From positions 60,001-92,000 of the forward strand of contig NZ_NVQC01000009.1 in assembly GCF_003044035.1 (NCBI RefSeq): a stretch of 32,000 nt of DNA, read 5' to 3'. The translations under genes were made by a program, and so were the position numbers. This DNA comes from Candidatus Methylomirabilis limnetica. GTDB lineage: Bacteria; Methylomirabilota; Methylomirabilia; Methylomirabilales; Methylomirabilaceae. This document shows positions 2,641 to 25,258 of the stretch, in pieces. The notes under the pieces are model-generated. The model was not told the origin of the DNA and made no database searches. It saw only the letters and a program-made list of their open reading frames with translations. Within the stretch, counting starts at the first letter, position 1, and every line of letters begins with the position of its first letter.

Positions 2641-3335
2641 CCAAGATGACTCAGGTGATCTAGCACGGCCTGCCGCTCCTTCTCGTCGAGCGTGGCGAGC
2701 GATTCCAATGGGTCGGCTTCTGGGCGTAGGACCCAGGCCGTTTCGAGCCGATCCGCAATCTCATTCACCCAGCGGAGCCGCTGAATCGCTTCTACCAGGA
2801 TAGAAGGCTCCTCAACCAGCTCTCCAGCCACTACGAACGGCTCGCCAGGGTGTTGATTCCCGTTATCGGGACGTGGTGCCATAGCCACATTGTAACCCCC
2901 GCCATTCTGGCCCCCGACCTTTTCCGTAGCAATAGGTGCCATCTGGCGATCTGCCCTTATGGGCAAGAAGCCTGGCATCCGGACGACGATGAACATTGAA
3001 ACGGCCGCCACCGCCAAGCCGGCGATGAGGCGGGGCCGGAAAGCAAACCACGACCCTACGCCAGCCAACCAGGCGGCGGTGGGTGTTGGCCTGTGCCTAC
3101 AGGCCTCCTGCTCGATTCGATGCTTCAGCGAAGGCAGGAACTCTTCCCAAAAGCCCGGCGACGGTTCAGGAACCGGGTCAGCCCGGACAAGAGCTAAGAG
3201 ATTGTGATACGCGGAGCGCTCAGCGGCGCACGTCGCACAGTCACGAAGATGCGCGAGAACCTCAGCCCTCTGCGCTGGCGGTAGATCCTCCTCGATCAAC
3301 TCGATCAGCTTGCACTCAACTTCCTCACATCGCAT
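2625..3335 (-). CDS. Anti-sigma factor, zf-HC2 type, single-pass membrane
   Basis: 236-aa ORF. The N-terminus carries the H-x3-C-x2-C motif (HLRDCATCAAE). A central TM helix (LIAGLAVAAVSMFIVV) is present. It lies immediately downstream of the ECF sigma gene. Confidence 0.8.
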   Translation of the reverse strand: MRCEEVECKLIELIEEDLPPAQRAEVLAHLRDCATCAAERSAYHNLLALVRADPVPEPSPGFWEEFLPSLKHRIEQEACRHRPTPTAAWLAGVGSWFAFRPRLIAGLAVAAVSMFIVVRMPGFLPIRADRQMAPIATEKVGGQNGGGYNVAMAPRPDNGNQHPGEPFVVAGELVEEPSILVEAIQRLRWVNEIADRLETAWVLRPEADPLESLATLDEKERQAVLDHLSHLGWSES

Positions 3336-3910: not shown

Positions 3911-3962
3911 GGCCTTCGTCTCTCACCGAGAGCCATCCCCCGTCCGACCGGCCCAGCCCAGC

Positions 3963-3990
3963 AACGGTGTTCTTGCAGGGCACGTTACCC
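3963..3990 (-). promoter_or_regulatory. Candidate ECF-type promoter (GTAAC-N17-CGTT)
   Basis: The minus strand reads GGGTAAC, then a 17-nt spacer, then CGTT, about 50 nt upstream of the sigma-factor start. The match to the generic ECF AAC/CGT pattern is weak and by eye only. Confidence 0.2.
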
Positions 3991-4034
3991 GATTCATTCC
4001 GTTGAGGGTTGATACCCCGCAGCTAGCCGCGAGT

Positions 4035-4102
4035 CCGTCATACCGGCGGAAGCCGGTATCCAGAGGGCCCGACTGGATTCCGTGTCAAGCACGGAATGAC
4101 GG
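4035..4102. repeat. Double-hairpin palindromic intergenic element
   Basis: Bounded by CCGTCAT (4035-4041) and ATGACGG (4096-4102). Hairpin TACCGGC/GCCGGTA at 4041-4058 and hairpin ATTCCGTG/CACGGAAT at 4077-4097. Conceptual translation is VIPAEAGIQRARLDS. Flanked by 17-bp direct repeats at 4014-4030 and 4121-4137 (16/17). Confidence 0.55.
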
Positions 4103-4192
4103 GCCAGCGCAGAAGCAGACACCCCGCAGCTTGCCGCAGGCTAGCTCATCTCCTTAGAACAGTTCAGCCGCCTGAATGTTTAATGCTCGGCC

Positions 4193-4288
4193 TTACTTCT
4201 TTCGGCGCTGGTGCCTGGTTCGCTTCAGAAGTTTCTTATGTTTGTGCTTACTCATCTTTTGCCGACGCTTCTTAACAACACTTCCCAC
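4193..4288 (-). CDS. 31-aa highly basic protein resembling ribosomal protein bS22 (AURKAIP1/COX24-type)
   Basis: Not in the supplied track (shorter than 60 aa). GTG at 4288 lies 7 nt after GGAGG (4300-4296) and the stop is TAA at 4195-4193. My own translation is (M)GSVVKKRRQKMSKHKHKKLLKRTRHQRRKK. This matches the remembered bS22 pattern MGSVIKKRRKRM-KKKHRKLL-RTR-QRR. Confidence 0.65.
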   Translation of the reverse strand: MGSVVKKRRQKMSKHKHKKLLKRTRHQRRKK

Positions 4289-4309: not shown

Positions 4310-5752
4310 TTACGTCCGCTCAGTCAATCCGCTCTCCAGAGTTGCGGGAGCGGTCTTCGTGTCCCGTCTGATATGAAATTTCTCTAGACGATACTGGAGT
4401 GTCCGGTAGCTCAAGCCCAGGAGGCGCGCCGCCTTGGTGATCACCCAATCAGACTTCTCCATGGCCTGTAGGATCAAGTCACGCTCCAGCGCCTCCAAGT
4501 GAATTCCCTGCTCGGGAATCTCGATCGCGAACTTGCTGCCAGAGGAACTCGATGGGGCAAGCTGGACCGGGAGGTTAAAGAACCGAATCTCAATGGGAAG
4601 ATCGTAATGCTTGATCTCAGGTCCTTCGGATAGTAGGCTTGCCCGCTCGATCACCGCCTCCAGTTGCCGGACATTACCGGGCCAGTGGTAATTCATAAGG
4701 ATCCGCATCGCCTCGTTACTGATCCCCTGGATGGGCTTCCCCGCGCCCGCACCATGCTTTTTGATGAAATACTCGACGAGTTGAGGGATGTCGGTGCTTC
4801 GCTCGCGGAGGGGTGGGATCACAATGGAGACAACGTTTAGCCGATAGAACAGGTCCTCCCGGAGGAGCCCGTCTTTGACCGCCTCGACAGGATCCCGATT
4901 GGTCGCAGCGATGACGCGAACGTCAACGTCGATCTCGTTTTTCCCCCCCAGTCTTCTGAACGTCTCTCCCTGCAGGACACGCAGGAATTTGGCCTGAGTC
5001 GGCAGTTGCATCTCGGCGACCTCATCGAGGAAAATAGTCCCGCCATGCGCGAGCTCAAAACAGCCGGCCCTCCGCTCCGCTGCCCCTGTAAACGCGCCTC
5101 GTTCATGGCCGAAGATCTCACTCTCCAACAAACTCTCAGAGATGGCCGCGCAATTCACAGCAATAAAGGGGCGATCTTGGCGCTGGCTTTGTCGATGGAT
5201 GATCCGAGCGATCAGCTCCTTCCCGGTCCCGCTCTCCCCGATAAGGAGTACCGTAGAGTGGCTGTTCGAGATCTTGCCGACCTTTTCGAAGACCTCCTGT
5301 ATTCGGAAGTGGCTGCCCACGATCCCTTCGATGCGAAAACGCTCCTCCAACTGCTGTCGCAAGAGCCTGTTCTCCAGGCTCAACTGGATCCGCTCGAAGG
5401 CCCGCCGCACGGTAAGCAGCAGTTCCTCTCGCTCCAGCGGTTTCGTCAGGTAGTCGAAAGCGCCCCGCTTCAGCGCCTGCTCAACCGAATCGAGCGAGCC
5501 ATAGGCGGTCATCAGGATGACCAGGGTGGGTGGGTTGTCCCGGGGCAACCGCTCCACAAGAGCCAAGCCATCGGTTCCTGGCATTCGAAGATCGGTCAGA
5601 ACCAGGTCATACGGCTTCTCCTGGCAGCGCCTGACGGCCTCCGCTCCTCCTGACGCTGTCTCGACCGAGTAGCCTTCAGCCGACAGGATGGCCCGAAGAA
5701 TCTCCCGCTGGGATCCCTCGTCATCCACCACCAAGATCCTGCCCTTGTGCAT
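4310..5752 (-). CDS. Sigma-54-dependent response regulator (NtrC family)
   Basis: 480 aa. Receiver domain (VVDDE, LVLTDLRMPG), AAA+ domain with Walker A GESGTGKE and GAFTGA, and a C-terminal Fis-type HTH (ITKAARLLGLSYRTLQYRL). The start overlaps the kinase stop (TGATG at 5750-5754). Confidence 0.95.
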   Translation of the reverse strand: MHKGRILVVDDEGSQREILRAILSAEGYSVETASGGAEAVRRCQEKPYDLVLTDLRMPGTDGLALVERLPRDNPPTLVILMTAYGSLDSVEQALKRGAFDYLTKPLEREELLLTVRRAFERIQLSLENRLLRQQLEERFRIEGIVGSHFRIQEVFEKVGKISNSHSTVLLIGESGTGKELIARIIHRQSQRQDRPFIAVNCAAISESLLESEIFGHERGAFTGAAERRAGCFELAHGGTIFLDEVAEMQLPTQAKFLRVLQGETFRRLGGKNEIDVDVRVIAATNRDPVEAVKDGLLREDLFYRLNVVSIVIPPLRERSTDIPQLVEYFIKKHGAGAGKPIQGISNEAMRILMNYHWPGNVRQLEAVIERASLLSEGPEIKHYDLPIEIRFFNLPVQLAPSSSSGSKFAIEIPEQGIHLEALERDLILQAMEKSDWVITKAARLLGLSYRTLQYRLEKFHIRRDTKTAPATLESGLTERT

Positions 5753-7882: not shown

Positions 7883-8230
7883 TCAGCCAGAAGCGGCAAC
7901 AGAAATGAGAACAGCGATCCGAAGCTCCAGTTGGCGGTTGTAATAGATGAAGAGATACAGGATCAGCGGAGACGGGTGCTCCAAGGGGGCCCATCGAGAA
8001 AGGAAAGCGAAATAGATGATCAATGTTGAGACGAAGGACCCGATCAGGGCGAGCCGGAGCAGCTTCTTACGCCGGGGACTCCACCGGGATAGCCGCAATA
8101 CCCGATCCCCTCTCACGAAGAGATAGATCTGCGATGCAACCAGCATCCCAACGATGATCGACCGGAGAAGTATAAACCGCATTGAGAGGGGCATCGTTTG
8201 GCGGGGGTCCACACAGGAGAAGGTGGACAA
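7883..8230 (-). CDS. Hypothetical multi-pass membrane protein, possibly a 5' gene fragment
   Basis: 115-aa ORF with about three hydrophobic helices and no recognisable soluble domain. It is in the same frame as, and abuts, the decayed region upstream of the hydrogenase-like remnant. It may be a truncated gene. Confidence 0.3.
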   Translation of the reverse strand: MSTFSCVDPRQTMPLSMRFILLRSIIVGMLVASQIYLFVRGDRVLRLSRWSPRRKKLLRLALIGSFVSTLIIYFAFLSRWAPLEHPSPLILYLFIYYNRQLELRIAVLISVAASG

Positions 8231-8356
8231 GCAATTCCATTAGTGCTAATAGATTTCCGTGATCCTCGCAAGCTTCTTTACTTCCCAAAAAGGGATGGTC
8301 TTTAAGGTGGAGGCGGCAGGGGGCGAGACGATGCAGTTGCAACGAGGCTGGTAAGC

Positions 8357-9265
8357 GTGGCGAACGTACTCGTCCGTCCGACTACTTTTGACTGGAACCC
8401 GGCCCTCGAATTACGGTTAGCAGGGATCGACGGTGGGGAGATCTTTTATGCCGTAGCCGGTGAGGGGGCCCCGGTGCTCTTGCTCCACGGCTTTGGAGGA
8501 GAGATCTGGATGTGGGAAAGGCAGGTGGAGGCGATGTCAAAGCGATATCGCCTGTACATCCCCGATCTCCTCGGATACGGCTATTCGGATCGGCCAAAGG
8601 TTGACTACACGCCGTCGCTTTTCGTCGATACGATCAGGCAGTTCATGGACCAAATCGGCGTAAGCCGTGCCAGCCTGATCGGAAACTCAATGGGTGCGGG
8701 GATCGCCTGGGCGTTTGCCCTCACCTACCCCACGCGAGTTGACAAGCTTATCCTGATCGATGGTATCCCCCCACATGTGGTCCCCGCGGTTCGAAGTCGC
8801 CTCTTGCGTTGGTTTCTCGCGATCCGACACATCCCCCTATTGCCTTACCTGGCTCTCGCATTACGGACTCGCCTCATGGTGCGGGCAGAGCTGATGGAGG
8901 CCATCTATGACGATCGGTTGGTCACTGACATGGTGGTCGAACGGCAGCACCAGATCAGCCGCATTGAAGGGACCGCCAGGGTCATGGCCTCTACGGTGCG
9001 CTACGCTGATGGGGTTGCTCGGTATGCCGACGCACTGGAGACCTTGCGCAAGCCAACGCTGATCATCTGGGGTGAACAGGATGAACTGTTTCCTGTGGCG
9101 GTGGGTTCGCAGCTCCACGCCTCAATCCGGGATTCCGAGCTGGTTGTCATTAAAGACAGCGGTCATATGGTGATGTGGGAGAAGCCCGACGAGACCAACC
9201 AGGCGATCCTGGAGTTCCTTGGCCGTCCCCCAGAGCGGTCGTGTACTGGTATCCCGCCACGATGA
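8357..9265 (+). CDS. Alpha/beta-fold hydrolase
   Basis: 302 aa with a GTG start. Oxyanion HGFGG, nucleophile elbow GNSMG and catalytic His in DSGHMVMWEKP. The last ~13 aa (RPPERSCTGIPPR) run past the usual family C-terminus into the island junction. Confidence 0.9.
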   Translation: MANVLVRPTTFDWNPALELRLAGIDGGEIFYAVAGEGAPVLLLHGFGGEIWMWERQVEAMSKRYRLYIPDLLGYGYSDRPKVDYTPSLFVDTIRQFMDQIGVSRASLIGNSMGAGIAWAFALTYPTRVDKLILIDGIPPHVVPAVRSRLLRWFLAIRHIPLLPYLALALRTRLMVRAELMEAIYDDRLVTDMVVERQHQISRIEGTARVMASTVRYADGVARYADALETLRKPTLIIWGEQDELFPVAVGSQLHASIRDSELVVIKDSGHMVMWEKPDETNQAILEFLGRPPERSCTGIPPR

Positions 9266-9384
9266 GCCTCGCTATCCGCAGCATCGACGCCCAGCGCGAC
9301 GAGCCGATCGGCCGGATCGAGAAGCAACTGCGCCAGCGCCACACGCTCAACCCAGTATTCGCGTTTCGGTGGAGTCTGGCATGA
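9262..9384 (+). pseudogene. 3' fragment, paralogous to the C-terminus of the 88-aa ORF at 10872-11138
   Basis: IDAQRDEPIGRIEKQLRQRHTLNPVFAFRWSLA versus IDTQRDELIKRIEGQLHQRHALKPVFTFRWRLA gives 24/33 identical by hand alignment. The N-terminal half of the full copy is absent. Confidence 0.55.
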
Positions 9385-9593
9385 AAACGAATGCCCCAGT
9401 CAACATAAAGCAACTGTCGGGTTTCCTGCGTCAGGGTGAGGGCCCGGCGCTGGAGTTCAAGCGTTCCACGGGCGAGATAAAGGAAAGCATGCAGACGCTT
9501 TGCGCCTTCCTCAACGGTATCGGCGGTACGGTCATCTTCGGCATCTGGCCGGACTGCGTGGCAGGCAGTCCGCCGTATGGGGGAGAACCGTGA
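9381..9593 (+). pseudogene. 5' fragment of a COG2865/AlbA_2-domain gene, paralogue of 11135-12631
   Basis: 70-aa ORF whose first 58 aa are about 70% identical (40/58 by hand) to the N-terminus of the 498-aa protein. It includes LEFKRSTGE..MQTLCAFLNGIGGTVIFGI. Homology stops at about 9555. Confidence 0.7.
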
Positions 9594-10660
9594 TGACGCT
9601 ACGCCAGTTCCTGGCCAAGCACGAAAGCGTTCCCGCAACGACTGCTTGGTATCTTGCGGATCTGGGTGAGGCGCGCGGCAAGCAGGAGTTGTTCACGCGG
9701 CAGTCCCCGCAACGCTTGAAAGCGCTGCAGGAGCACGCGCTTATCGAAAGTGCGGTCTCCTCCAACCGAATCGAGGGGGTGGAGGTGGACAAGGCGCGCA
9801 TCGGTACGCTCATTTTCGGCAAGCCATTTCTGCGGGACCGCAACGAGGAAGAAGTGCACGGGTATCGCCAAGCGCTGAAGCTCATCCACGAGAAGGGTTC
9901 GAAGCTGCCCCTGACCGAAGAGACGGTCCTCCGTTTACACCGGATGGCCCGCGGCGAAATCTGGGACGCGGGCAAATATAAGGAAAAAGACGGAGACATT
10001 ATTGAGAGGCATGCGGACGGCACCTCGCGCATCCGCTTCAAGACCGTGCCGGCCGCCAAGACGCCAGGTGCCATGAAGGATCTGATCGCGCTCTGGAATA
10101 CCTGCATCGAGGAGCGCGCGGTGCACCCCCTCATTGCTTTGGCGGCCTTCAATCTGGATTTTCTGTGCATTCATCCGTTTCGGGACGGGAACGGCAGGAC
10201 GTCTCGTCTGCTGTTCTTGCTCCAATGTTACCATCTCGGCTACGAGGCGGGACGGTACATCAGCCTGGAGCGCCTCATCGAGCAGAATAAGGATCGTTAT
10301 TACGACACCTTGGAGCGAAGCTCCGCGAAATGGCACGAAGGGAAACACAATCCCTGGCCGCATGTGAACTACCTGCTCTACATTCTCAAAACCGCCTGCA
10401 GGGAATTCGAAGACCGCCTGGGTCGGATCAAAAGTCCGCGAGGCGAGAAGACGGGGCTGGTCGTTCAGGCGATCCATCGCATGACGGACGTCTTCCGCGT
10501 CGCCGACCTGCAGAAACAATGCCCGTGGGTCAGTGTGGACATGATCCGGCGGGTGCTCAAAAATCTACGGGCGAAAGAAGCCGTGGAATGTCTGGGGCGC
10601 GGGCAAAGCGCCACGTGGCGAAAAACGCCCAAGTGGCGGGAATTGGGTAATACCGATTGA
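9593..10660 (+). CDS. Fic family protein (Fic_N, Fic core, C-terminal wHTH)
   Basis: 355 aa from the ATG at 9593 (TGATG overlap with the upstream ORF). Canonical Fic motif HPFRDGNGRTSRLL. An N-terminal SNRIEG matches the [ST]xxxE[GN] autoinhibitory helix motif. The upstream 31 codons in the ORF track look like spurious extension. Confidence 0.9.
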   Translation: MTLRQFLAKHESVPATTAWYLADLGEARGKQELFTRQSPQRLKALQEHALIESAVSSNRIEGVEVDKARIGTLIFGKPFLRDRNEEEVHGYRQALKLIHEKGSKLPLTEETVLRLHRMARGEIWDAGKYKEKDGDIIERHADGTSRIRFKTVPAAKTPGAMKDLIALWNTCIEERAVHPLIALAAFNLDFLCIHPFRDGNGRTSRLLFLLQCYHLGYEAGRYISLERLIEQNKDRYYDTLERSSAKWHEGKHNPWPHVNYLLYILKTACREFEDRLGRIKSPRGEKTGLVVQAIHRMTDVFRVADLQKQCPWVSVDMIRRVLKNLRAKEAVECLGRGQSATWRKTPKWRELGNTD

Positions 10661-10673
10661 ATTAGGTAATGAA

Positions 10674-10875
10674 TTGGGTATCGTTGGAGCGACGGGTTCG
10701 GAGAAAATCCTCGTGCTCCTTCGGCGGAATCCAGAGGGTTTCCGCCAGGGGCATTGCAGACGCCGTGGGTCTGACCTCGCGGGCCGTGGAGAAACATCTG
10801 AGCAAACTGAAGCAGGAGGGCCGCCTCAAGCGCATCGGCCCCGACAAGGGTGGACGCTGGGAGGTGACCCGATGA
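10674..10875 (+). pseudogene. Frameshifted C-terminal winged-helix module of a COG2865-type protein
   Basis: Helix 1 (GSEKILVLLRRNPE) is in the frame of ORF 10674-11138. The rest (VSARGIADAVGLTSRAVEKHLSKLKQEGRLKRIGPDKGGRWEV) is in the frame of ORF 10669-10875. The frames join if one G of the GGG run at 10736-10738 is removed. Confidence 0.55.
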
Positions 10876-11138
10876 CGGAACCCACGATCATCTGCTCCAA
10901 GTGCAAGACTGACATCAAGCTCACAGAATCGCTGGCCGCCGCGCTCAAGGACAAGCTCGAAGCTCAGAGGGGGCTCAAGTCGCTGGAGGCCGAGCGGAAT
11001 AGGAAGCGCCGGGAGCTCTTCGACGCGCAGGACGCCATCGATACCCAGCGGGATGAACTCATCAAGCGGATCGAGGGACAACTGCACCAGCGCCACGCGT
11101 TAAAGCCGGTGTTCACGTTCCGGTGGAGGCTGGCATGA
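10872..11138 (+). CDS. 88-aa CxxC + coiled-coil protein of unknown function
   Basis: ATG at 10872 (ATGA overlap upstream) and stop overlapping the next ATG (ATGA at 11135-11138). Sequence is MTEPTIICSKCKTDIKL, then a charged helical region, then the conserved tail KPVFTFRWRLA. Confidence 0.55.
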   Translation: MTEPTIICSKCKTDIKLTESLAAALKDKLEAQRGLKSLEAERNRKRRELFDAQDAIDTQRDELIKRIEGQLHQRHALKPVFTFRWRLA

Positions 11139-12631
11139 ACCGCGGCACGACGGTCAACGCGCAAGAGCTATCGACGCTCCTGACTCATGGCGAGGGGGAG
11201 TCCATTGAGTTCAAGCGTTCGACCGGCGAGATGAAGGAGGCCATGCAGACCTTGTGCGCCTTCCTCAACGGTATCGGCGGTACGGTCATCTTCGGCATCC
11301 GGCCGGACGGCACGGCGGAAGGCCAGGACGTGACCGACAAAACATTGCGGGAGATTGCCCAAGCCACGGAGCGCTTCGAGCCTGCCGTTCATCTCTCGAT
11401 CCGCCGCGCCAAGGCCGAGGCGCGCCGTGAGGTCGTCGCCGTTTCTGTCGAGGGGGGATTGGACAAACGCCCGTTCACCTATGACGGCCGTCCCTACGAG
11501 CGGGTCGGAAGCACCACGCGACGCATGGCGCAGTCCAGATATGAGAAGACGCTCATGGACCGCGCCCACGGCACGCGTCGCTGGGAAAATGAACCAGCCG
11601 AGCGGGTGGAACTACGGGATATCGATCGGGACGAGGTGTTCCGAATCGTCAACATCGCAGCCTCTCTGGGCCGTCTTGCGGGTCCCGTGGGATCACGATT
11701 GGCGGATATCCTGGATCGCCTCAAACTGCGCCGGGACGGGAAGATTCTGCAGGCCGCCGTGGTCCTATTCGGCAAGGAGTTCATGCCAGACTATCCGCAG
11801 TGCGAACTTCGCATGGCGCGGTTCAAGGGCACCGACAAGGCGGAATTCATGGACCAGCGTCAAGTCCGTGCTCCGGCGTTCAAATTGCTTGAAGAAGCCG
11901 AGTTGTTCTGCCAGCGCCATTTTCCGATGCCGGCCAAGGTCGTACCGGAACAGCTTCGCCGCGTTGAATCGCCGCTCATTCCGATTGACGCCATGCGCGA
12001 GATTCTGGTCAACGCGCTCATTCATCGAGACTATTCCATCGCGGGCGGTGCGGTTTCGCTGGCCATCTTCGATGACCGGGTAGAGGTTTGGAGCGCGGGT
12101 ACCTATCCAACCGGGATTACACCAGATAAACTGAGCAAGCCCCATTTGTCTGTACAGCGCAACCCGATCATTGCGGATGTTTTCAACAGAACGGGGCTGA
12201 TCGAGAAGTGGGGACGGGGAACGAACCGGGTTATTGCGATGTGCCGGAAGGCGGGCCTTGCTCCTCCGACATTCGATGAGATTACCGGGGCGGCCGTGGT
12301 CACCTTCCTGGTCAACGTGCTGGGGCCTGGACGCGAGTCCGCACAAGTCGCGGGACCAAGTCGGGACCAAGTCGGGACCAAGTCGGGACCAAGTCGGGAC
12401 CAAGTCGCCGTACTTGAGCGGTGCCGCGATGCCCGCGCCTTGCTGGAGATCATGGGGGTCGCGGGTCGCACCAACCGCACCAAATTTCGCGAAGGCGTTC
12501 TCAAGCCGCTGATTGAAGCGGGGCTTCTGGAGCCGACCATTCCCGACAAGCCGAGAAGTCGGATGCAGCGGTACAAGACTACGGGGGCCGGGCTGGCCAT
12601 GCTGGAGAAGGAACGTCATGGCGAACCATAA
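11135..12631 (+). CDS. COG2865-type protein: AlbA_2 (Schlafen-related) domain, HATPase_c_4-like domain, C-terminal wHTH
   Basis: 498 aa. N-terminus has IEFKRSTGE...CAFLNGIGGTVIFGI (AlbA_2). The centre has NALIHRDYS...RNPIIADVFNRTGLIEKWGRGTNR (HATPase_c_4 type). The C-terminus has NRTKFREGVLKPLIEAGLLEPTIPDKPRSRMQRYKTT. The stop overlaps the mod start by 14 nt. Confidence 0.85.
   Translation: MNRGTTVNAQELSTLLTHGEGESIEFKRSTGEMKEAMQTLCAFLNGIGGTVIFGIRPDGTAEGQDVTDKTLREIAQATERFEPAVHLSIRRAKAEARREVVAVSVEGGLDKRPFTYDGRPYERVGSTTRRMAQSRYEKTLMDRAHGTRRWENEPAERVELRDIDRDEVFRIVNIAASLGRLAGPVGSRLADILDRLKLRRDGKILQAAVVLFGKEFMPDYPQCELRMARFKGTDKAEFMDQRQVRAPAFKLLEEAELFCQRHFPMPAKVVPEQLRRVESPLIPIDAMREILVNALIHRDYSIAGGAVSLAIFDDRVEVWSAGTYPTGITPDKLSKPHLSVQRNPIIADVFNRTGLIEKWGRGTNRVIAMCRKAGLAPPTFDEITGAAVVTFLVNVLGPGRESAQVAGPSRDQVGTKSGPSRDQVAVLERCRDARALLEIMGVAGRTNRTKFREGVLKPLIEAGLLEPTIPDKPRSRMQRYKTTGAGLAMLEKERHGEP
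12351..12405 (+). repeat. Perfect tandem repeat, 5 x 11 bp (CGGGACCAAGT), inside a CDS
   Basis: Read directly: units at 12351, 12362, 12373, 12384 and 12395. A partial unit ACAAGTCG lies at 12343-12350 and CG follows. It encodes GPSRDQVGTKSGPSRDQV. Confidence 0.97.
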
Positions 12632-14423
12632 GACCAAGCTGGAGCTGACCTGGATCGGCAAGGAGAACCGGCCGAGGCTGGAGCCGCGCATCCTCGTCGA
12701 GGACCCGGAGAAGTCCTATCACGCCTCATCTCGGGTGAGCGACAAAGACACCTTCGATAATCGGCTCATCTTCGGGGACAACTTGCTCGCCCTCAAGGCG
12801 CTGGAGCAAGAGTTTGCCGGGAAGATCAAGTGCATCTACATCGACCCGCCGTTCAACACCCAGCAGGCGATGGAGCACTACGACGACGGCGTGGAACACT
12901 CGATCTGGCTGACGCTGATGCGTGACCGTTTGGAGATTCTGCACCGCCTGCTGGCAAGTGACGGCACGCTGTTCGTGCATATCGACGACAATGAGTTAGG
13001 CTATCTCATCGTCTTGCTGGATGAGATATTTGGTCGTCCGAACCGCGTTCACGTGGTTACGTTCAAGCAGGGTTCGGCGACCGGGCACAAGTCGATCAAC
13101 CCAGGGTGCGTCAACACAACGAACTACATCGTGATCTACGCTAAGAACAAGACGCCGTGGAAGCCGAATCGCCTGTTCACAGGCCGCGAACGCGACACGC
13201 GATACGGGCAGTTCATCGTCAACATTGAGGATCATCACGAGGGTTGGGAGATCGTCACGCTTACAAAGGCATTTGGAAGTGCGCTCGGCGTCACTGACAA
13301 AGACGCCCGGAAGATCATCAAGGATGAGCCGCAGCGAGTGGAGTCGTTCGTTCTGCAAAACGCCCGCAGAGTGATTCGTAATGCCAGGCCCAACTATGAA
13401 GGGGTTAGCGAATCCGCGAGAGAGATGATCGATGCTTCAAAACTTAAACCCAAGACTATCTTGAGGCTGGAGCGAGAAGATCACTCCGACATGTACTTCA
13501 GGAACGGCGAACGAATCCTCTTTTACGCAGACAAGCTCAAACTGGTGGATGGTGAATATGTGGCCGGTGAGCCGCTGACGACATTGTGGGATGACATCTT
13601 GTCAAACAACCTGCACAACGAGGGCGGCGTGGACTTTCCCAAGGGTAAGAAGCCCGAAGCCCTCATCAAGCGAATCCTTGAACTATCAACCAACTCCGGC
13701 GACTGGGTGCTCGACTCGTTTGCCGGGTCCGGCACTGCCGGCGCGGTGGCGCACAAGATGGGCCGCCGGTGGATCATGGTGGAGCTCGGCGAGCACTGCC
13801 ACACGCACATCATTCCGCGTCTGAAGAAGGTCGTTGACGGCGAAGACAAGGGCGGCATCACCGAGGCCGTGGGCTGGAAAGGCGGCGGGGGCTTCCGGTA
13901 TTACCGCCTTGCCCCGTCGCTCCTGGAAAAGGACCAGTTCGAGAACTGGGTCATCAACCGGAAATATAACGCCGCCATGCTGACCGAGGCGATCTGCAAG
14001 TTGGAGGGGTTCGCCTACGCCCCCAGTGACACAATCTACTGGCAGCACGGCCGCTCGACCGAGAAGGACTTCATCTACGTTACGACGCAGACGCTCGCCC
14101 GCGAGCAGATCCAGAAGCTCTCAGACGAGGTGGGCGAGGAGCGGAGCCTGCTCGTTCTATGCGGCGCGTTCCGCGTGAAGAACCTCGATGCGTTTCCGAA
14201 TCTGACGGTCAAGAAAATCCCCAAGACCGTGCTGTCCCGCTGCGAATGGGGCAAGGACGACTATAGCCTTGAGATCAGAAGCCTGCCCATGAAATCTGCC
14301 GAAGAGGAACCAGATGTCGCCGCGCCGCCCTTTGGTAAGAACCCGCGCACCAAGGCCGAGCGCCGGGACCATGCCCAAGCCACGCTGTTCGACCTGACGG
14401 GCGAAGAAGGGATGGGGTCGTGA
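12618..14423 (+). CDS. mod: Type III R-M DNA methyltransferase (Mod), beta-class N6/N4 MTase
   Basis: 601 aa from the ATG at 12618. Motif IV IYIDPPFN precedes motif I DSFAGSGTAG, with a variable region between them, as in Mod subunits. The 35 upstream codons in the track are likely not translated. Confidence 0.9.
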   Translation: MANHKTKLELTWIGKENRPRLEPRILVEDPEKSYHASSRVSDKDTFDNRLIFGDNLLALKALEQEFAGKIKCIYIDPPFNTQQAMEHYDDGVEHSIWLTLMRDRLEILHRLLASDGTLFVHIDDNELGYLIVLLDEIFGRPNRVHVVTFKQGSATGHKSINPGCVNTTNYIVIYAKNKTPWKPNRLFTGRERDTRYGQFIVNIEDHHEGWEIVTLTKAFGSALGVTDKDARKIIKDEPQRVESFVLQNARRVIRNARPNYEGVSESAREMIDASKLKPKTILRLEREDHSDMYFRNGERILFYADKLKLVDGEYVAGEPLTTLWDDILSNNLHNEGGVDFPKGKKPEALIKRILELSTNSGDWVLDSFAGSGTAGAVAHKMGRRWIMVELGEHCHTHIIPRLKKVVDGEDKGGITEAVGWKGGGGFRYYRLAPSLLEKDQFENWVINRKYNAAMLTEAICKLEGFAYAPSDTIYWQHGRSTEKDFIYVTTQTLAREQIQKLSDEVGEERSLLVLCGAFRVKNLDAFPNLTVKKIPKTVLSRCEWGKDDYSLEIRSLPMKSAEEEPDVAAPPFGKNPRTKAERRDHAQATLFDLTGEEGMGS

Positions 14424-14959
14424 AAACGAAGCCGGCGTCCGCCTTGTATGGCCGCATCAGAGAGATTCTCGAGTCCGCCCGTGCAAGTGTCGCACGCTCC
14501 GTCAATACCACTCAGGTTGTGGCCAACTGGTTGGTCGGTCGGGAAATCGTAGAAGAGGAGCAGAAGGGGAAGGCGAAGGCGGCGTATGGGGAGCGGCTCC
14601 TGGCGGAACTCTCCAGCCGCCTCCGAGCGGAGTATGGTAACGGCTACTCGGTGGACAATCTCGAACTGTTCCGCCGGTTTTATGGGGAATATCCCGCCTT
14701 AATCTCTGACGCGCTGCCTCGGAAATTCTCCATGCCGCAGATTTCCGACGCACTGCGTCGGAAATCGCCTCCCGCGGATTTGGGCGCACTCGCGTTCGGC
14801 GGATCAGAGGTGCGCGCCGCCATGAGATGGAGACCCGGGATACTGCATCCGAATCCCTCATGGACCCATTACCGGCCAACTGAGGCCGAGCTCCGAGCGG
14901 AATTGCGGCGTGAAGTACGCGCGCTCACCGCTCCCAAGAAGCACGGAGACGCGCAATGA
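14420..14959 (+). CDS. DUF1016 (YhcG) N-terminal-domain protein lacking the PD-(D/E)xK core
   Basis: 179 aa with a GTG start overlapping the mod stop (GTGA). The N-terminus LYGRIREILESARASVARSVNTTQVVANWLVGREIVEEEQKGKAKAAYGERLL matches the DUF1016 N-domain by eye. After SWTHYR it jumps to a C-terminal-tail-like PTEAELRAELRRE. There is no room for the nuclease domain. Confidence 0.65.
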   Translation: MKTKPASALYGRIREILESARASVARSVNTTQVVANWLVGREIVEEEQKGKAKAAYGERLLAELSSRLRAEYGNGYSVDNLELFRRFYGEYPALISDALPRKFSMPQISDALRRKSPPADLGALAFGGSEVRAAMRWRPGILHPNPSWTHYRPTEAELRAELRREVRALTAPKKHGDAQ

Positions 14960-17640
14960 ACCCGGCTGTGAACACTATTGCCAACCGATTGAGCCTCCGC
15001 TCGCCGCAGCGGATCTCGCTCGAAATCCTGGCGCGAATCTGCGATATCATCTCCCTGGAAAAGGGCGCGGACGTGGCCCAGGCGATCAAGGCAGTCCGGT
15101 CGGAATTCTCGACGGTCACGGATTTCGAGCGGGACTTCCCGTCCCTCTGCTTTGCCCTGGCGACCGGCGTGGGCAAGACGCGGCTCATGGGCGCGTTCAT
15201 CGCCTATCTCCATAAGGCCGAGGGTATCCGTCACTTCTTCGTCCTCGCCCCGAACCTGACCATCTACAACAAGCTGATCGCGGACTTTACGCCCAACACG
15301 CCGAAGTACGTCTTCCAGGGAATCGCCGAGTTCGCGGTCGAGCCACCGGAGATCATTACCGGCGATAACTACGAGAGCGGGCGCGGCGTGCGGAGTCGAG
15401 ATCTCTTTGGCGACAAGAGCGTTCACGTCAATATCTTCAACATCGGCAAGATCACGAGCATCGAGACGCCCAAGGGCGCGGTCAAGACGAACGTCCCGAA
15501 GTTCCGCCGCCTGCAAGAGTACATCGGCCAGAGCTATTTCGAATGCCTCTCGAAGCTGGACGACCTCGTGCTCCTCATGGACGAGTCGCACCGCTACCGG
15601 GCGTCGGCGGGCATGAAGGCCATCAACGAGCTCAAGCCCATCCTGGGTCTGGAGCTCACCGCCACGCCGCAGATAGAGCGCGGCGGCGGATCGGAGCCGT
15701 TCAAGAACGTGATCTACAGCTACCCCCTGTCGGACGCGATGGAGGACGGCTTCGTCAAGGAACCCGCCGTTGCCACGCGCGAGAACTTCGACATCCGCAA
15801 CTACGACGAGGGCGGGCTAGAACGCCTCAAGCTTGGGGACGGCGTCCGCATCCATGAGAACACCAAGCTCGAGCTGGAGGTCTACGCCCGCGAAAACGGC
15901 GTGCCCATTGTAAAGCCCTTCATGCTCGTGATCGCCAAGGACACGGACCACGCCAACGCCCTGGTGAAGCTGATGGAGGACGACACCTTCTTCGAGGGCC
16001 GCTACAAGGGCAAGGTCATTACGGTACATTCCGCCCTCAGAGGAGAAGAGCGCGACGACACGGTCGAGCAACTGATCCACGTGGAGAAGCCCGACAACCC
16101 CACGGAGATCGTGGTCCACGTGAACATGCTCAAGGAAGGCTGGGACGTTACGAACCTTTACACGATCGTCCCGCTACGGGCGGCGAACTCGAGGACGCTC
16201 GTGGAGCAGTCCATCGGCCGGGGCTTGCGCCTGCCCTACGGAAAGCGCACCGGCATCGGCGCGGTGGACCGCCTGACCATCGTGTCGCACGACAAGTTCC
16301 AGGAGATCGTGGACTACGCCAACAGCCCCGAGTCCATCATCCGGGGCGGTCTGAGGGTCGTCTACGTCAGCGACGAACGATCCAAGATCGTGGTGGCAGA
16401 GCCGGAGATCGTCAGGCGGATCGCCGAACTCGTGTCTCCTTTCGGCAAGGCAGGCGAGCAGCAGAAGCTCCTATTCGAGTCGCCTAAGGAGCAGGAGGCG
16501 GCGAGGGCCACGCTGGAGGTCATCCGGGAGTTCGAGCGCCTGCCGCGCTCGGCCGACCTCACCAAGCCCGAAATCCATGAGCAGATTGTCGAGAAGGTCA
16601 AGACGCTCATCACGCCAGCCCAGCGGGAGATCGAGGGCGTGGCGGAGAAGGTGGACGTCGATCGAGTTGTCGCGGTCATGACGACGCAATACGTCGAACT
16701 GTCCATCGATATCCCCAGGATCACGATCCAGCCAGTGGGCGATGTGACACGGGGCTATCGCGAGTTCACGCTGGACCTTTCGCGGGTGAACTACCAGCCC
16801 GTGGAGAACGAGATCCTGATCCAGGAGTTGCACCGTCGCGAACAGCACCGCCTGATGAGCGGGACCGGTATCGTCCCCGAGGAGAAGCCGGAGGACTATT
16901 TGGTGCGCGGGCTCATCGACTTCAACGACATCTCCTACGACGACCAGGCCGAGCTACTCTACAAGCTGGTCGGGCAGGTCGTGGCCCACTTGCGCTCCTA
17001 TCTGAAGGACGAAAACGAGGTCCTCAACGTGCTCCAGTACCACCAGCAGGGGCTGGTGAACCTGATCCACGCGCAGATGCAGGAGCACTACGAGGAGAAG
17101 GCTACGGCCTACGAGGCGCACGTGAGCAGGGGATTCACGACGCTCCGGCCGAACAACTACTCGGCTCCGGACAACGAGGCTGCGCGCGACTTCCGCGCAC
17201 CCGTCATCGAGAAGCAGGACATCCGTAAGATGCTCTTCAGCGGCTTCAAGAGATGCCTCTATCGCGTCCAGAAGTTCGATTCGGATTCGGAGCGTCGGTT
17301 CGCGGTTGTGCTGGAGAACGACTCCGATGTGCTCAAGTGGTTCAAGCCCGCCAAGGGAGACATTCCGATCTACCATTCCGGCGACACGCCCTATGAGCCC
17401 GATTTCGCAGTCGAGACCAAGACGGCGAAATTCGTCTGTGAAACCAAGCGCGCGGACGAGATGGAGGACCGCGAGGTCCTGGCCAAGGCGAAGGCGGCCG
17501 CGGAATGGTGCGGACACGCCACGACGCATGAGGGCAAGAACGGCGGCAAGCCGTGGACCTACCTGCTGATCCCGCACGACGTGATCACGGACAACAAGAC
17601 GCTCAAGGGGTTGGCCGCGTCCTACACCTATCGTGGGTAG
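14956..17640 (+). CDS. res: Type III restriction endonuclease subunit (Res), SF2 helicase + C-terminal PD-ExK nuclease
   Basis: 894 aa. Motif I ATGVGKT, motif II LMDESHR and later helicase motifs (LKEGWDV, QSIGRGLR). The C-terminal YEPDFAVE...CETK is a nuclease-like motif. ATGA overlap with the upstream ORF. Confidence 0.9.
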   Translation: MNPAVNTIANRLSLRSPQRISLEILARICDIISLEKGADVAQAIKAVRSEFSTVTDFERDFPSLCFALATGVGKTRLMGAFIAYLHKAEGIRHFFVLAPNLTIYNKLIADFTPNTPKYVFQGIAEFAVEPPEIITGDNYESGRGVRSRDLFGDKSVHVNIFNIGKITSIETPKGAVKTNVPKFRRLQEYIGQSYFECLSKLDDLVLLMDESHRYRASAGMKAINELKPILGLELTATPQIERGGGSEPFKNVIYSYPLSDAMEDGFVKEPAVATRENFDIRNYDEGGLERLKLGDGVRIHENTKLELEVYARENGVPIVKPFMLVIAKDTDHANALVKLMEDDTFFEGRYKGKVITVHSALRGEERDDTVEQLIHVEKPDNPTEIVVHVNMLKEGWDVTNLYTIVPLRAANSRTLVEQSIGRGLRLPYGKRTGIGAVDRLTIVSHDKFQEIVDYANSPESIIRGGLRVVYVSDERSKIVVAEPEIVRRIAELVSPFGKAGEQQKLLFESPKEQEAARATLEVIREFERLPRSADLTKPEIHEQIVEKVKTLITPAQREIEGVAEKVDVDRVVAVMTTQYVELSIDIPRITIQPVGDVTRGYREFTLDLSRVNYQPVENEILIQELHRREQHRLMSGTGIVPEEKPEDYLVRGLIDFNDISYDDQAELLYKLVGQVVAHLRSYLKDENEVLNVLQYHQQGLVNLIHAQMQEHYEEKATAYEAHVSRGFTTLRPNNYSAPDNEAARDFRAPVIEKQDIRKMLFSGFKRCLYRVQKFDSDSERRFAVVLENDSDVLKWFKPAKGDIPIYHSGDTPYEPDFAVETKTAKFVCETKRADEMEDREVLAKAKAAAEWCGHATTHEGKNGGKPWTYLLIPHDVITDNKTLKGLAASYTYRG

Positions 17641-17773
17641 GTGCGGACGGGCGAATGAAGGGGAAATCAGCAACGATCGAGGAGCGAGCGGACCGACTTT
17701 ACCCGTATCCGTTGCCTTACCATCGTCGGGGACTTGATGGGTGGTGTGACGAACAGAGGCGTGCTACGCGGTG

Positions 17774-18355
17774 TTAACGCTGGCGTCCGGCCGATTGTCG
17801 GCGATCTGGGAGCGGTGAGAGATCAAGTCGTTGCTTGGCCCAGAGAATGCCGATGATGCTCTTGGCATCTACAAACTTATTTGACAGGACCCAGCGGTAG
17901 GCCTGTTCGAACGGGATCGCACGGGCCTGTAGGAACTCGGTAGGATCGTGGCGGCGGTCCCGGCCGGCTATGAGTCCTTGAGCCAGAAAAAGCTGGATGG
18001 AGCCGGTGGAGAAGCCAACTGCGGAATAGAAGGCGCACAGCTTGAGCAGTCGGCGCGGGCGAAGTCCGATCTCCTCTTCGCACTCCCGCCGGGCGGTTTC
18101 GACCGGGCGTTCGCCGTGATCGATGATGCCGGCCGGGATCTCGTAGATGGCCCGCTGGATGGCCGGCCGATACTGTCGAACCAGGTGGATTCGGCCGTCG
18201 TCATCGATCGGCACGATCGCGACTGCGTGCGGAGGGCGAACGATGTCCCGGATCGCCTGTCGCCCATCCGGCAGGACGACCGTCTGTTGCTCGGTTGAAA
18301 GGTACGCCCCCGCGTAGACTACCTGCGTGCCGAGGACTCGTTCGATGAGTTTCAT
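17774..18355 (-). CDS. NUDIX hydrolase (ADP-ribose pyrophosphatase-like)
   Basis: Nudix box GIIDHGERPVETARRECEEEIGL. I prefer the ATG at 18355, preceded by GGAGGAGG, over the track start at 18418. Confidence 0.88.
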   Translation of the reverse strand: MKLIERVLGTQVVYAGAYLSTEQQTVVLPDGRQAIRDIVRPPHAVAIVPIDDDGRIHLVRQYRPAIQRAIYEIPAGIIDHGERPVETARRECEEEIGLRPRRLLKLCAFYSAVGFSTGSIQLFLAQGLIAGRDRRHDPTEFLQARAIPFEQAYRWVLSNKFVDAKSIIGILWAKQRLDLSPLPDRRQSAGRQR

Positions 18356-22250: not shown

Positions 22251-23159
22251 ATGAAGGTGGCGGTGGTGGGGGTGGGGGCAGTAGGGGGTTACTTTGGCGG
22301 CCTGCTGGCCAAGGGTGGCGTCGATGTCACGTTCATCGCCCGCGGCGAGCGCCTGGAGGCGCTCAGGGCGAGGGGCCTTACGGTCAAGAGCGGGAAGGGG
22401 GATTTCTCCATCCGCATCGACGCTACTGACGATCCAGCGGAGGTTGGTCCCGTCAACCTGGTCCTCTTTTGCGTGAAATCGTACGATACTGAGTCGGCTA
22501 TTCGCCAGGCACTCCCAATGGTCGGGCAGGAAACCCTCGTCCTGTCGCTTCAGAACGGTATCGACAACGAGGAAAAGATCTCATCCTTCATTGGAACAGG
22601 GAAGGTCTTAGCGGGGGTAGCCTACATCGGGGCGAGCGTGCTGGAGCCTGGAGTGATCCTCCACCAGGAGGGCGGGAAGATCGTGTTCGGAGAGATCGAC
22701 GGCGGCGTCAGCGAACGGGTTGTCAGTCTCAAAGCGTTCTTCGACCGATGCGGCCTACCCGCTGAAGGCTCCCCTGACATGAAAAAGATCCTGTGGACGA
22801 AGCTCGCATGGAACGCCCCCTTCAACGCCATCAATACCCTGGTCGGCGGCCCGGTCAAGGCGATCATCGAGAACTCACACACCCTCGAGCTGGCGAGGCA
22901 GGTGACGGAAGAGGTCGTCACCGTGGCGAACGCCTCAGGGGTCCGCCTTGCCTTTGCGGAGGTATGGGAGCGGAATCTCCAGTTCTCCCAAGGCTACAAC
23001 GTCAAGACCTCGATGCTGCAAGACCTGGAGGCGAGCAAGCCTTTGGAGTGCGAAGCCCTCAATGGCGTGATTATCAAAAAGGCGGCCGAACTGGGTCTGC
23101 CCACGCCCTACAACTTCGCCCTCTATGCCCTCCTGTCAGGGCTTCAGATTGTAAGCTGA
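22251..23159 (+). CDS. panE: 2-dehydropantoate 2-reductase (ketopantoate reductase family)
   Basis: 302 aa from the ATG at 22251. N-terminal Rossmann motif VVGVGAVGGYFGG and overall ApbA/PanE-like architecture. Confidence 0.85.
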   Translation: MKVAVVGVGAVGGYFGGLLAKGGVDVTFIARGERLEALRARGLTVKSGKGDFSIRIDATDDPAEVGPVNLVLFCVKSYDTESAIRQALPMVGQETLVLSLQNGIDNEEKISSFIGTGKVLAGVAYIGASVLEPGVILHQEGGKIVFGEIDGGVSERVVSLKAFFDRCGLPAEGSPDMKKILWTKLAWNAPFNAINTLVGGPVKAIIENSHTLELARQVTEEVVTVANASGVRLAFAEVWERNLQFSQGYNVKTSMLQDLEASKPLECEALNGVIIKKAAELGLPTPYNFALYALLSGLQIVS

Positions 23160-23321
23160 GCAGTCCACCATGGCAGCAGCCGCACTGACGCCAAAACTTT
23201 TGCCCTTCGTGATGTGTCAAAAGTAGAATCGCTGTATCATCCTTCATCGGTGTAGTCGCACCAGTGGCCCTCTGTGTCCTCCGAGAGGCCGCCAACTGTT
23301 ATTACTCGGAGCATAAAATAG

Positions 23322-23407
23322 CTTACCCCCCTTTCGCAAAGGGTGGTAAGGGGGGATTTGAACCATCAGCAAATCCCCCTCAATCCCCCTTTTTTAAAGG
23401 GGGAAGT
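23322..23407. repeat. Palindromic repeat cluster related to 1481-1518
   Basis: A 13-bp stem hairpin with one mismatch at 23322-23350. An 8-bp hairpin CCCCCTTT/AAAGGGGG at 23385-23403. The stretch 23370-23407 matches 1481-1518 at 32/38 positions by hand alignment. Confidence 0.6.
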
Positions 23408-23518
23408 TGCTTGAGATGTTGTGCAAGAATGCAATCTAGTTAGTGCTTCCCGTAATACCTTGAACAGGAGAGCCAAGATCAAATTGTGGGGCACCCTATA
23501 CTCTACTGTCCTGATTTG

Positions 23519-23567
23519 TGCTAATATCGCTTGTCGCAAATTACCTGGCTTGCGAGACGCAAGCCAG
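23519..23567 (+). promoter_or_regulatory. Candidate extended -10 promoter and leader hairpin of gltA
   Basis: TGCTAATAT at 23519-23527 fits the TGn + TAATAT pattern. A perfect 10-bp stem CTGGCTTGCG-AGA-CGCAAGCCAG lies at 23545-23567, about 55 nt before the gltA ATG. Confidence 0.3.
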
Positions 23568-23623
23568 ACTTTACAGCCAAAAAGAGGGCATGAGAGGGGT
23601 CGCTCGGCGCGAGGAGGAGCTTC

Positions 23624-24934: not shown

Positions 24935-24972
24935 AACATTGCGGTATCTTGGCGGGGTAGGCATCCGCTCCA

Positions 24973-25179
24973 GTGCATTCTTTCCGACGGCGTGTACGTC
25001 CAGTAGCTGTCACCCTCCCTGCCCTCTTCGAAGAGTATGGCTATCATCACCATCTCCAGACAGATCGGGGATTTGAAATTTCCGAGAAGTATGTCGTTGG
25101 CTACGATCTCGATGACAACCAGCGCTATCGCAACCTGCCTTGCATCGGTGTCCTGAAACCCGAGCTGACGGAACGCTAG
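24973..25179 (+). pseudogene. hpt: 3' remnant of hypoxanthine phosphoribosyltransferase gene
   Basis: The C-terminal [32 protein letters not shown] matches the HPRT C-terminus pattern (GFEIPDEFVVGYGLDY..YRNLPYIGVL). Only ~245 nt separate the gltA stop from this stop, so the ~120 N-terminal codons are missing. Confidence 0.7.
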
Positions 25180-25221
25180 GGCCTTTTTTCCAGGGGTTCC
25201 GGTCCGCCGTCTCTCCGCATC

Positions 25222-25250
25222 TCGACACCCTTGCCGAGATATGGTAGAAG
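25222..25250 (+). promoter_or_regulatory. Candidate sigma-70 promoter of tRNA-Leu
   Basis: TCGACA (25222-25227), a 17-nt spacer and TAGAAG (25245-25250), ending 8 nt before the tRNA 5' end. The match is partial. Confidence 0.25.
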
Positions 25251-25258
25251 TACATGAC

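Follow-up and report, generated by a model that had tools for sequence, protein, structure and literature searches.

A perfect 11-nucleotide coding repeat in a Schlafen-type defence gene of Candidatus Methylomirabilis limnetica: a possible low-rate frameshift switch

The window analysed here is a stretch of 32,000 nucleotides (nt) of Candidatus Methylomirabilis limnetica (positions 60,001 to 92,000 of contig NZ_NVQC01000009.1), in which a gene for a prokaryotic Schlafen-type protein, located in a type III restriction-modification (RM) operon, contains a perfect tandem array of an 11-nt unit. The best-supported account of this tract is that it is a genuine coding microsatellite, prone to slippage, which lies in a disordered linker and represents an old feature of the protein family. 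We further favour, with a probability slightly above one half (about 0.55), the view that it works as a low-rate and reversible mutational switch between the full-length Schlafen protein and a form lacking the C-terminal winged helix-turn-helix (wHTH) domain, and not as a switch of the methyltransferase and nuclease genes mod and res. The argument depends on the following elements.

11135..12631, + strand: prokaryotic Schlafen-type gene, 498 amino acids (aa) (Pfam; PTL36968.1/WP_107561131.1, Ca. Methylomirabilis limnetica)
12342..12350, + strand: degenerate partial unit cACAAGTCG, with the two extra bases responsible for the register (sequence, simulation)
12351..12407, + strand: perfect tandem array, 5.2 copies of CGGGACCAAGT (register GGGACCAAGTC) (repeat finder, sequence, simulation)
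12407..12628, + strand: part coding for the wHTH (Fic-like_C), lost unless the units number 2, 5 or 8 (Pfam, AlphaFold2 model)
12415..12417, + strand: TGA used at 4 or 7 units (loss of one unit), the product ending in ...GPSRRT (simulation)
12510..12512, + strand: TGA used at 3, 6 or 9 units, and stop of the natural 3-unit allele P0002, 451 aa (simulation, contig)

Tandem Repeats Finder reports the unit CGGGACCAAGT in 5.2 copies at 12351-12407, with a period of 11, 100% matches and a score of 114. Our own reading of the sequence agrees with it, which bears out the preliminary description of this DNA in so far as it had noted a perfect five-copy 11-bp tandem repeat inside a COG2865 gene. Allowing at most one mismatch, the register GGGACCAAGTC occurs five times in the 32-kb window, always inside the array, against 0.72 occurrences expected, and none of 100 shuffled windows reached this number. 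With its 57 nt, the array is the longest perfect one when set beside the 123 arrays listed from our metagenome scan (the next measures 45 nt), and it also exceeds the perfect arrays on the 24 viral contigs tabulated. It is thus expected to be among the least stable.

The encoded protein carries a SLFN_AlbA_2 domain at residues 20-131 (PF04326, E = 1.6e-18), with an Ex4ExK-like motif (EGESIEFK) that begins at residue 20, a HATPase_c_4 domain at residues 304-391 (PF13749, E = 3.8e-22) and a Fic-like_C domain at residues 434-483 (PF21247, E = 1.6e-10) within a wHTH region of about residues 425-498, an architecture formerly filed under COG2865. Residues 406-424 form the linker encoded by the repeat. 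Having a Slfn domain with the motif, a HATPase and then a C-terminal HTH, the protein can probably be assigned to the Slfn-HisKinase-HTH class. According to a recent study, this is the second commonest prokaryotic Schlafen architecture (19.2%), and prokaryotic Schlafens act as anti-phage effectors with the active site Ex4(E/D)xK (bioRxiv 10.1101/2025.07.24.666596). Another report describes the architecture as a widespread 'backup' RNase beside BREX and related systems (PMC12839542), and in both studies the class is reported to comprise defence effectors.

Three units make 33 nt, which are read as GGG ACC AAG TCG GGA CCA AGT CGG GAC CAA GTC and give G-T-K-S-G-P-S-R-D-Q-V. The peptide (A)GPSRDQV-GTKS-GPSRDQV is a single 11-mer read successively in the three frames. 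When the last 100 residues were modelled with AlphaFold2 (19 homologues), the repeat-encoded residues had a predicted local distance difference test (pLDDT) score below 50 and no secondary structure, and the wHTH after the linker reached about 90, its helix 1 (RDQVAVLER) starting at the final RDQV. The low pLDDT would mean that the array encodes a flexible interdomain linker, and the repeat-encoded peptide is accordingly predicted to be a disordered connection between the HisKinase-like domain and the C-terminal wHTH.

Simulating 0 to 9 units in silico, we found the gene in frame at 2, 5 and 8 units, because the two extra bases in 12342-12350 set the register. As the unit has 11 nt, every copy-number change other than a multiple of three units shifts the frame, and a change in unit number switches the simulated product between full length and a form cut before the wHTH; the natural 451-aa protein P0002 fits this prediction. 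The preliminary description had placed a stop at 12415-12417 after the loss of one unit, with the wHTH gone, and another at 12510-12512 after the gain of one, and had seen an overlap of 14 nt between the Schlafen gene (TAA at 12629-12631) and mod (ATG at 12618). The simulation reproduces both stops, and the overlap is as described.

Alleles with five and with three units both exist in assemblies. P0002, retrieved by a homologue search, has 451 aa, is 100% identical to the window protein over its first 418 residues and lacks Fic-like_C. Apart from a single mismatch, its contig (L001; ENA ERZ27287891, MEGAHIT k141, 10.2 kb) departs from window positions 7896-18133 in a single gap, a deletion of 22 nt, or two units, which leaves three units and a product that stops at the predicted alternative TGA; the wHTH remains as a separate intact open reading frame (ORF) of 59 aa. 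The orthologue of Ca. M. tolerans (L203, 85.6% identical) likewise has three units and is out of frame, and its wHTH frame is intact, with six synonymous and three non-synonymous differences in 225 nt. Since k-mers of at least 47 span the 57-nt array, an assembler working at k141 or k55 should not collapse it. Copy-number variation exists at the assembly level, but it is rare.

The DNA repeat is conserved across the protein family. We scanned one genome per GTDB species, seeding the search by protein alignment of the C-terminal module only. Upstream of modules of the 'RTKFR' type, the DNA was always a tandem array of GGGACCAAGTC or of a one-base variant (GGCACCAAGTC, GGGACTAAGTC, GGGACCAAGTT) in 3-6 copies. 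The hosts include members of Elusimicrobia, Nitrospira, Gemmatimonadota, Deltaproteobacteria, Gammaproteobacteria, Verrucomicrobiota and Bacteroidota, with Pseudomonadales, Bacteroides and Chlorobiaceae as further named hosts in the protein-seeded scan, and at least eight phyla have the DNA repeat ahead of this wHTH module. The complete genome of Lonepinella koalarum has 4.5 perfect units, three Bacteroides isolate genomes (L022, L023, L032) have arrays of 31-48 nt, and an array of five units from Bacteroides (L016) was found in an uncultured metagenome bin. At least 120 loci were added when metagenomes were scanned for the DNA pattern. All 47 full-length array-bearing proteins contain Fic-like_C, 46 contain HATPase_c_4, 30 SLFN_AlbA_2, seven DUF4062 and one Fic; array-bearing homologues have diverse neighbours, among them RM genes of types I, IIG and III, BREX-like genes and integrases, or stand without any. 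Other types of C-terminal module have 12-nt (xxQV) arrays at the same position. No match to the array plus the module was found in 5,426 complete E. coli genomes, and a plasmid protein search returned only linkers of the 12-nt type.

Codon usage inside the array was compared with that in the rest of the same ORFs for the 20 protein-seeded occurrences (binomial p from 1e-5 to 5e-19), with the following result.

Lys AAG: array 20/20; elsewhere in the same ORFs 57%
Ser AGT: array 20/20; elsewhere in the same ORFs 12%
Gln CAA: array 20/20; elsewhere in the same ORFs 32%
Leu CTA: array 11/11; elsewhere in the same ORFs 4%
Pro CCA: array 9/9; elsewhere in the same ORFs 13%
Arg CGG: array 13/14; elsewhere in the same ORFs 25%

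At the same loci, the four-fold sites of the adjacent wHTH are saturated (entropy of 1.9 bits). Moreover, the synonymous Gly wobble (G/C) covaries with Gly/Ala at residue 5 and with Asp/His at residue 9, which are the same position of the unit read in the two other frames (table 58/5/7/41, Fisher p = 1e-17; 14/0/1/5, p = 4e-4 in the protein-seeded set). The Bacteroides variant GGGACCAAGTT translates into GTKL..SW.QV, as expected from one base change spread to all units. As far as can be judged from such counts, the codon usage and the covariation beside saturated flanks show that the homogeneity of the array is maintained at the DNA level. Wobble changes confined to one unit, being synonymous, should drift in; their absence points to recurrent homogenisation, by slippage or unequal exchange, or to selection for a perfect repeat. 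Either would imply a gain and loss of units that recurs over evolutionary time, with a frameshift in two thirds of the cases. The preliminary description had named, as evidence against its proposal, a peptide conserved with synonymous divergence; instead, the codons of the homologues are frozen in the 11-nt register. We considered selection on the peptide as the source of the conservation and ruled it out on the basis of the frozen codons and the predicted disorder of the peptide, since the structure of a disordered linker does not explain codon freezing.

Frameshifts located at the array are found in other members of the family. Among the listed metagenome loci, 52 have a long upstream ORF and a recognisable module; 48 of them are in frame and four (L145, L149, L152 and L183, about 8%) are out of frame, the shift being located in the array in all four. 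A Nitrospira locus (L004) provides a fifth case. The out-of-frame arrays include a perfect one of 45 nt (L152) and one of 71 nt (L149). Both classifiable array-bearing loci on viral contigs are in frame, and so are 40/40 of the 12-nt arrays of paralogues. Two candidate frameshifts, L005 and L008, were rejected as being in frame, tblastn having matched another frame of the repeat (all three translate similarly), and in L007 the supposed tract shift is an internal deletion. Remnants or deletion derivatives of the family are represented by L003, L007, L013, L017, L019 and L020. In L003 (~3920-4270), from an Elusimicrobia metagenome-assembled genome, the first ~15 Schlafen codons (MTVGIPANAKQ...) are fused straight to the linker and the wHTH; this mini-gene is either an internal-deletion derivative or a stand-alone wHTH protein.

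Some further repeats deserve mention beside these arrays. In L152 (~5150-5210, reverse strand), a short 12-nt repeat encoding GTKLGTKLGTKS lies directly upstream of the out-of-frame four-unit 11-nt array, bringing both repeat periods together in one linker. Two Legionella plasmids (L207 and L208, ~2990-3040) encode a DUF4062/HATPase_c_4 protein with 12-nt linker arrays, which consist of 3 x ACCGGACAAGTT (TGQV) in the L. pneumophila plasmid and of 1 x ACC.. followed by 3 x GCCGGACAAGTT (AGQV) in that of L. anisa; the two differ by an in-frame change of copy number (3 vs 4) and by unit sequence. Perfect TGGGACTAAGT arrays of ~30 nt occur on seven IMG/VR contigs (L211, L212, L215, L218, L219, L223 and L228). 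In the four that were inspected, which share their flanks (L211, L212, L218 and L223), the array lies in a stretch closed in three frames with dispersed copies nearby, a context that looks iteron-like or binding-site-like, and the resemblance to the Schlafen-linker unit may be coincidental.

From these observations we infer a slippage mechanism, together with its reversibility, its rate and any adaptive value, along the following lines. Repeated slippage or unequal exchange would keep the units alike by concerted evolution, constrained by the fact that each base of a unit falls in turn on the first, the second and the third codon position. With an 11-nt unit, a copy change that is not a multiple of three units would produce a frameshift just before the winged-helix domain and thereby a truncated protein of 412-473 aa, and a further slip would restore the frame. 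The outcome would be an abortive-infection effector that is either armed or disarmed (or re-wired). One may go further and suppose that evolution has maintained the 11-nt array as a frameshift element in an entire class of defence proteins (Schlafen-HisKinase-wHTH, with a few Fic and DUF4062 proteins that have the same wHTH) in many phyla. The single 11-mer, read in three frames, would then be preserved as a perfect DNA repeat because slippage reversibly detaches a C-terminal sensor or regulatory domain and hedges bets between an armed and a disarmed abortive-infection nuclease. This wider proposal we regard as unlikely.

A number of results weigh against a switch. The five-unit allele is present on seven contigs from several samples, among them one assembled with SPAdes at 407x coverage and those of two Joint Genome Institute samples with 1 and 10 mismatches to the window, and a relative that is 94.6% identical (L002) has five units as well, with one substitution in the first. 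Exact look-up among ~15 billion proteins retrieved no product of 0, 1, 2, 4, 6, 7, 8 or 9 units, nor, in the same collection, either of two variant products on the L002 background. In the other nine pairs of distinct loci with a flank identity of at least 95%, the arrays are equal or near-equal in length, and array lengths differ (31, 48, 50 and 56 nt) only among Bacteroides-type loci at ~86-92% identity. The arrays of the family have mostly 3-4 units, far below classical contingency tracts, and the difference between 5/~66 out-of-frame arrays for the 11-nt unit and 0/40 for the 12-nt unit has the expected direction but is statistically not decisive. The codon counts and the covariation are phylogenetically non-independent. 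Finally, the three-unit alleles are assembly consensus sequences in which the 57-nt array may be mis-assembled, and the truncated alleles could be plain losses of function in a dispensable defence gene. The stability among close pairs argues against a high switching rate, and the tract would in this respect be unlike a classical high-frequency contingency locus. The comparison of orthologues proposed in the preliminary description gave a divided answer: L001 and Ca. M. tolerans differ from the window by three against five units, as a variable tract requires, and the seven contigs and L002 keep five.

The same stability can be read as the mark of a non-adaptive slippery linker, shaped by concerted evolution and the three-frame constraint, in which frameshifts are effectively irreversible losses of function and no switching is selected. 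We hold this explanation to be doubtful, although it deserves serious weight. It accords with arrays that are short (median ~3.4 units among the listed metagenome arrays) and stable among close relatives, with the many remnants and deletion derivatives, as expected for fast-turnover defence genes, and with the single variant contig in the M. limnetica population. It fits less well with the rarity of wobble interruptions in single units, which would be synonymous and would damp slippage, with the intact wHTH frame behind both three-unit alleles, and with the persistence of the 11-nt form in many phyla although safe 12-nt units exist in paralogues. That the variation is not real, the three-unit alleles being assembly artefacts and the tract a fixed repetitive linker, appears decidedly unlikely. 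In both deviant alleles the array measures exactly 3.2 units (35 nt), the shortest fitting de Bruijn k-mers of ~29-33, and the remaining contigs of the population all have five units; however, L001 was assembled with MEGAHIT at k141, well above the k of 47 from which the array is spanned, array-located frameshifts arose independently at other lengths (L152 and L149), and the frozen wobble sites require a continuing turnover of units. A further proposal, quite unlikely in our estimation, is that the repeat and its 12-nt relatives are mainly homology patches for the swapping of C-terminal wHTH modules. Near-identical N-terminal bodies are indeed joined in the linker to different C-terminal wHTH modules (P0010, P0015 and P0048; P0124 vs the window protein), which suggests module shuffling at the repeat-encoded linker, and synonymous divergence between M. 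limnetica and M. tolerans is ~4-fold lower downstream of the array than upstream. Yet a domain boundary would be favoured for crossover with or without repeats, and the conserved block of the two species runs into mod. Their identity rises already ~120 nt upstream of the array, and we rejected the array as the breakpoint in this pair for that reason.

The preliminary description had gone beyond the Schlafen protein and proposed that the tract could toggle Mod/Res through translational coupling, which would make the locus a phasevarion-like epigenetic switch. This we consider very unlikely, and control of Mod/Res by the tract is unsupported. The relevant element upstream of mod is the following.

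12604..12612, + strand: Shine-Dalgarno-like GGAGAAGGA, 5 nt before the mod ATG, in the loop of a weak hairpin (sequence, fold)

In favour of coupling, mod begins in the last 14 nt of the Schlafen gene and the OFF alleles terminate 106 or 201 nt further upstream, the whole locus is a chain of overlapping stops and starts, and the ATG of mod takes part in a local stem of 6 bp. Against it, mod has a good Shine-Dalgarno sequence of its own at optimal spacing, and the RNA fold around its start is no more stable than shuffles (z = +0.84), on which ground we discarded the idea that RNA structure ties mod to coupling. The neighbours of the array-bearing homologues vary or are absent, meaning that the repeat moves together with the Schlafen gene rather than with mod. 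Tandem Repeats Finder detected no tandem repeat in mod itself (12618-14423), and as the repeat lies outside that gene, the locus is not a phasevarion.

In a survey of type III mod genes, tracts were counted from three units upwards for units of at least 3 nt, with units of 1-9 nt covered (PMC5909438). The phasevarions of modA, modB, modH and other mod genes (PMC5909438) resemble the window in having a perfect repeat, not a multiple of three, in an ORF of a type III RM operon, where gain or loss of a unit shifts the frame; with five units, the window tract exceeds the minimum of three. They differ in that the repeat lies in mod and not in an accessory Schlafen gene, that the surveyed units have 1-9 nt and 4-48 copies (here 11 nt and 3-6 copies), and that the product is abolished, whereas here the C-terminal domain is cut off. 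The host is here an environmental methanotroph of the NC10 group, with a tract length that is mostly invariant among close relatives. The tract would work in the manner of a contingency locus; in contrast to such loci, the repeat itself is conserved across phyla and sits in the interdomain linker of a defence effector. Repeat-driven truncation is exemplified by the NgoAV-type truncated HsdS. In phase-variable type I hsdS/hsdM genes (PMC7383803), as here, a repeat in an RM locus toggles between a full-length and a C-terminally truncated product; the target protein and its function are different, the tracts there are homopolymers or have short units, and the truncated Schlafen form is a predicted product.

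The window protein shares with the Slfn-HisKinase-HTH class, as presented in the two reports (bioRxiv 10.1101/2025.07.24.666596; PMC12839542), the order SLFN_AlbA_2, HATPase_c_4, wHTH, the Ex4ExK-like motif and the setting in a defence island or RM operon; the sections consulted, and a term search of the second report, gave no mention of a repeat-encoded linker or of frameshift alleles. Seven architecturally distinct Schlafen representatives were reportedly tested in E. coli, and two protected, a DUF262-Slfn fusion and the Ig-like-domain RorSlfn5. For the Slfn-HisKinase-HTH class, the available portion of the preprint gives no mechanism (bioRxiv 10.1101/2025.07.24.666596). The anticodon nucleases PrrC and RloC (PMC3710099, Table 1) are comparable as latent RNase-type effectors inside RM operons, often with Fic/Doc-like genes. 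They have a HEPN and ABC ATPase fold and no repeat-based switching has been described for them, so that the likeness would be functional only. The 12-nt (xxQV) linkers before Fic-like_C, in the Fic protein 4RGL and in the ATP-binding proteins of Legionella plasmids, also lie directly upstream of the wHTH, have a related unit (..GGACAAGT..) and vary in copy number between relatives (3 vs 4 in L207/L208). Their frame is kept (40/40), whereas the 11-nt unit, with one base less, passes through three frames.

Should the array indeed be a frameshift element, repeat-driven phase variation would extend beyond host-adapted pathogens and beyond surface and methylase genes to the innate-immunity effectors of environmental bacteria, by way of a repeat architecture without earlier description. 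In our literature search, the repeat, the peptide strings and the frameshift alleles went unmentioned, and COG2865/HATPase_c_4 proteins were not linked to repeats. If the tract slips, it would show that an uncultured methanotroph from the environment switches a defence effector by means of a repeat, and would give simple genetic access to what the C-terminal wHTH does in the commonest HTH-bearing class of prokaryotic Schlafens (~19% of them), with full-length and truncated natural alleles side by side. Cultured carriers (Lonepinella koalarum; Bacteroides isolates L022, L023 and L032) make switching directly testable. Regardless of switching, an 11-nt microsatellite shared across phyla is an unusual and clean case of concerted evolution constraining a coding sequence, conserved base for base since all three frames make use of every base. 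There is also a warning for annotation, as split or 'truncated' COG2865/RecG-like genes interrupted at this spot are likely variants of tract length.

The genes around the Schlafen gene are listed below.

9593..10660, + strand: Fic gene, SoFic-like, 355 aa by the gene call in L204, upstream in the defence island (Pfam, PADLOC)
10669..10875, + strand: small ORF, 68 aa (ORF calls)
10872..11138, + strand: small ORF, 88 aa, running into the Schlafen gene and aligning with the 3' end of an SNF2 helicase gene of Ca. M. tolerans (alignment)
12618..14423, + strand: type III mod, 601 aa, overlapping the Schlafen gene by 14 nt (Pfam N6_N4_Mtase; PADLOC MTase_III, E = 9e-196)
14420..14959, + strand: ORF with DUF1016_N only, 179 aa, PADLOC candidate PDC-S02, between mod and res (Pfam, PADLOC)
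14956..17640, + strand: type III res, 894 aa (Pfam ResIII + RE_endonuc; PADLOC REase_III, E = 1.6e-228)

PADLOC and Pfam thus recognise a Mod methyltransferase and a Res helicase-nuclease in one operon, that is, a type III RM system. Overlapping stops and starts link the 68-aa ORF, the 88-aa ORF, the Schlafen gene, mod, the DUF1016_N ORF and res. Promoter and terminator scans of the window between 9 and 18 kb gave hits at chance level only.

Comparison with Ca. M. tolerans revealed two further features of this operon. The block at 12233-12832, which takes in the final part of the HisK-like domain, the array and the wHTH and also the first 200 nt of mod, is 92-99% identical between the two species, against 80-88% for the rest of the Schlafen gene, and suggests a recent exchange. 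Within mod, positions 12933-13700 have ~45-65% identity to the mod gene of Ca. M. tolerans, with flanks of 87-99%, a profile that fits a swapped target-recognition domain and would give the two species different Mod specificities.

Upstream of the Schlafen gene, the 88-aa ORF at 10872-11138 aligns with the 3' end of the gene for a 951-aa SNF2-family helicase (L203, 2944-3149), which fills its position in Ca. M. tolerans; the ORF is probably a remnant of such a helicase gene. Positions 9282-9554 are 77% identical to positions 11036-11308, and the junction is thereby present a second time, upstream of Fic, together with a 70-aa ORF (9381-9593) that matches SLFN_AlbA_2 weakly; this suggests that most of a second Schlafen cassette was replaced by Fic. 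Elsewhere in the window, the regions 1480-1520 and 23370-23410 share a hairpin-forming motif of ~35 nt, AAATCCCCCT[TC]AATCCCCCTTTT..AAAGGGGGAA, that may be a small dispersed palindromic element. A tRNA-Leu(CAA) gene lies at 25259-25345, and the G+C content drops from ~0.60 to 0.47-0.53 across 23000-28000, which may mark the boundary of a mobile or island region.

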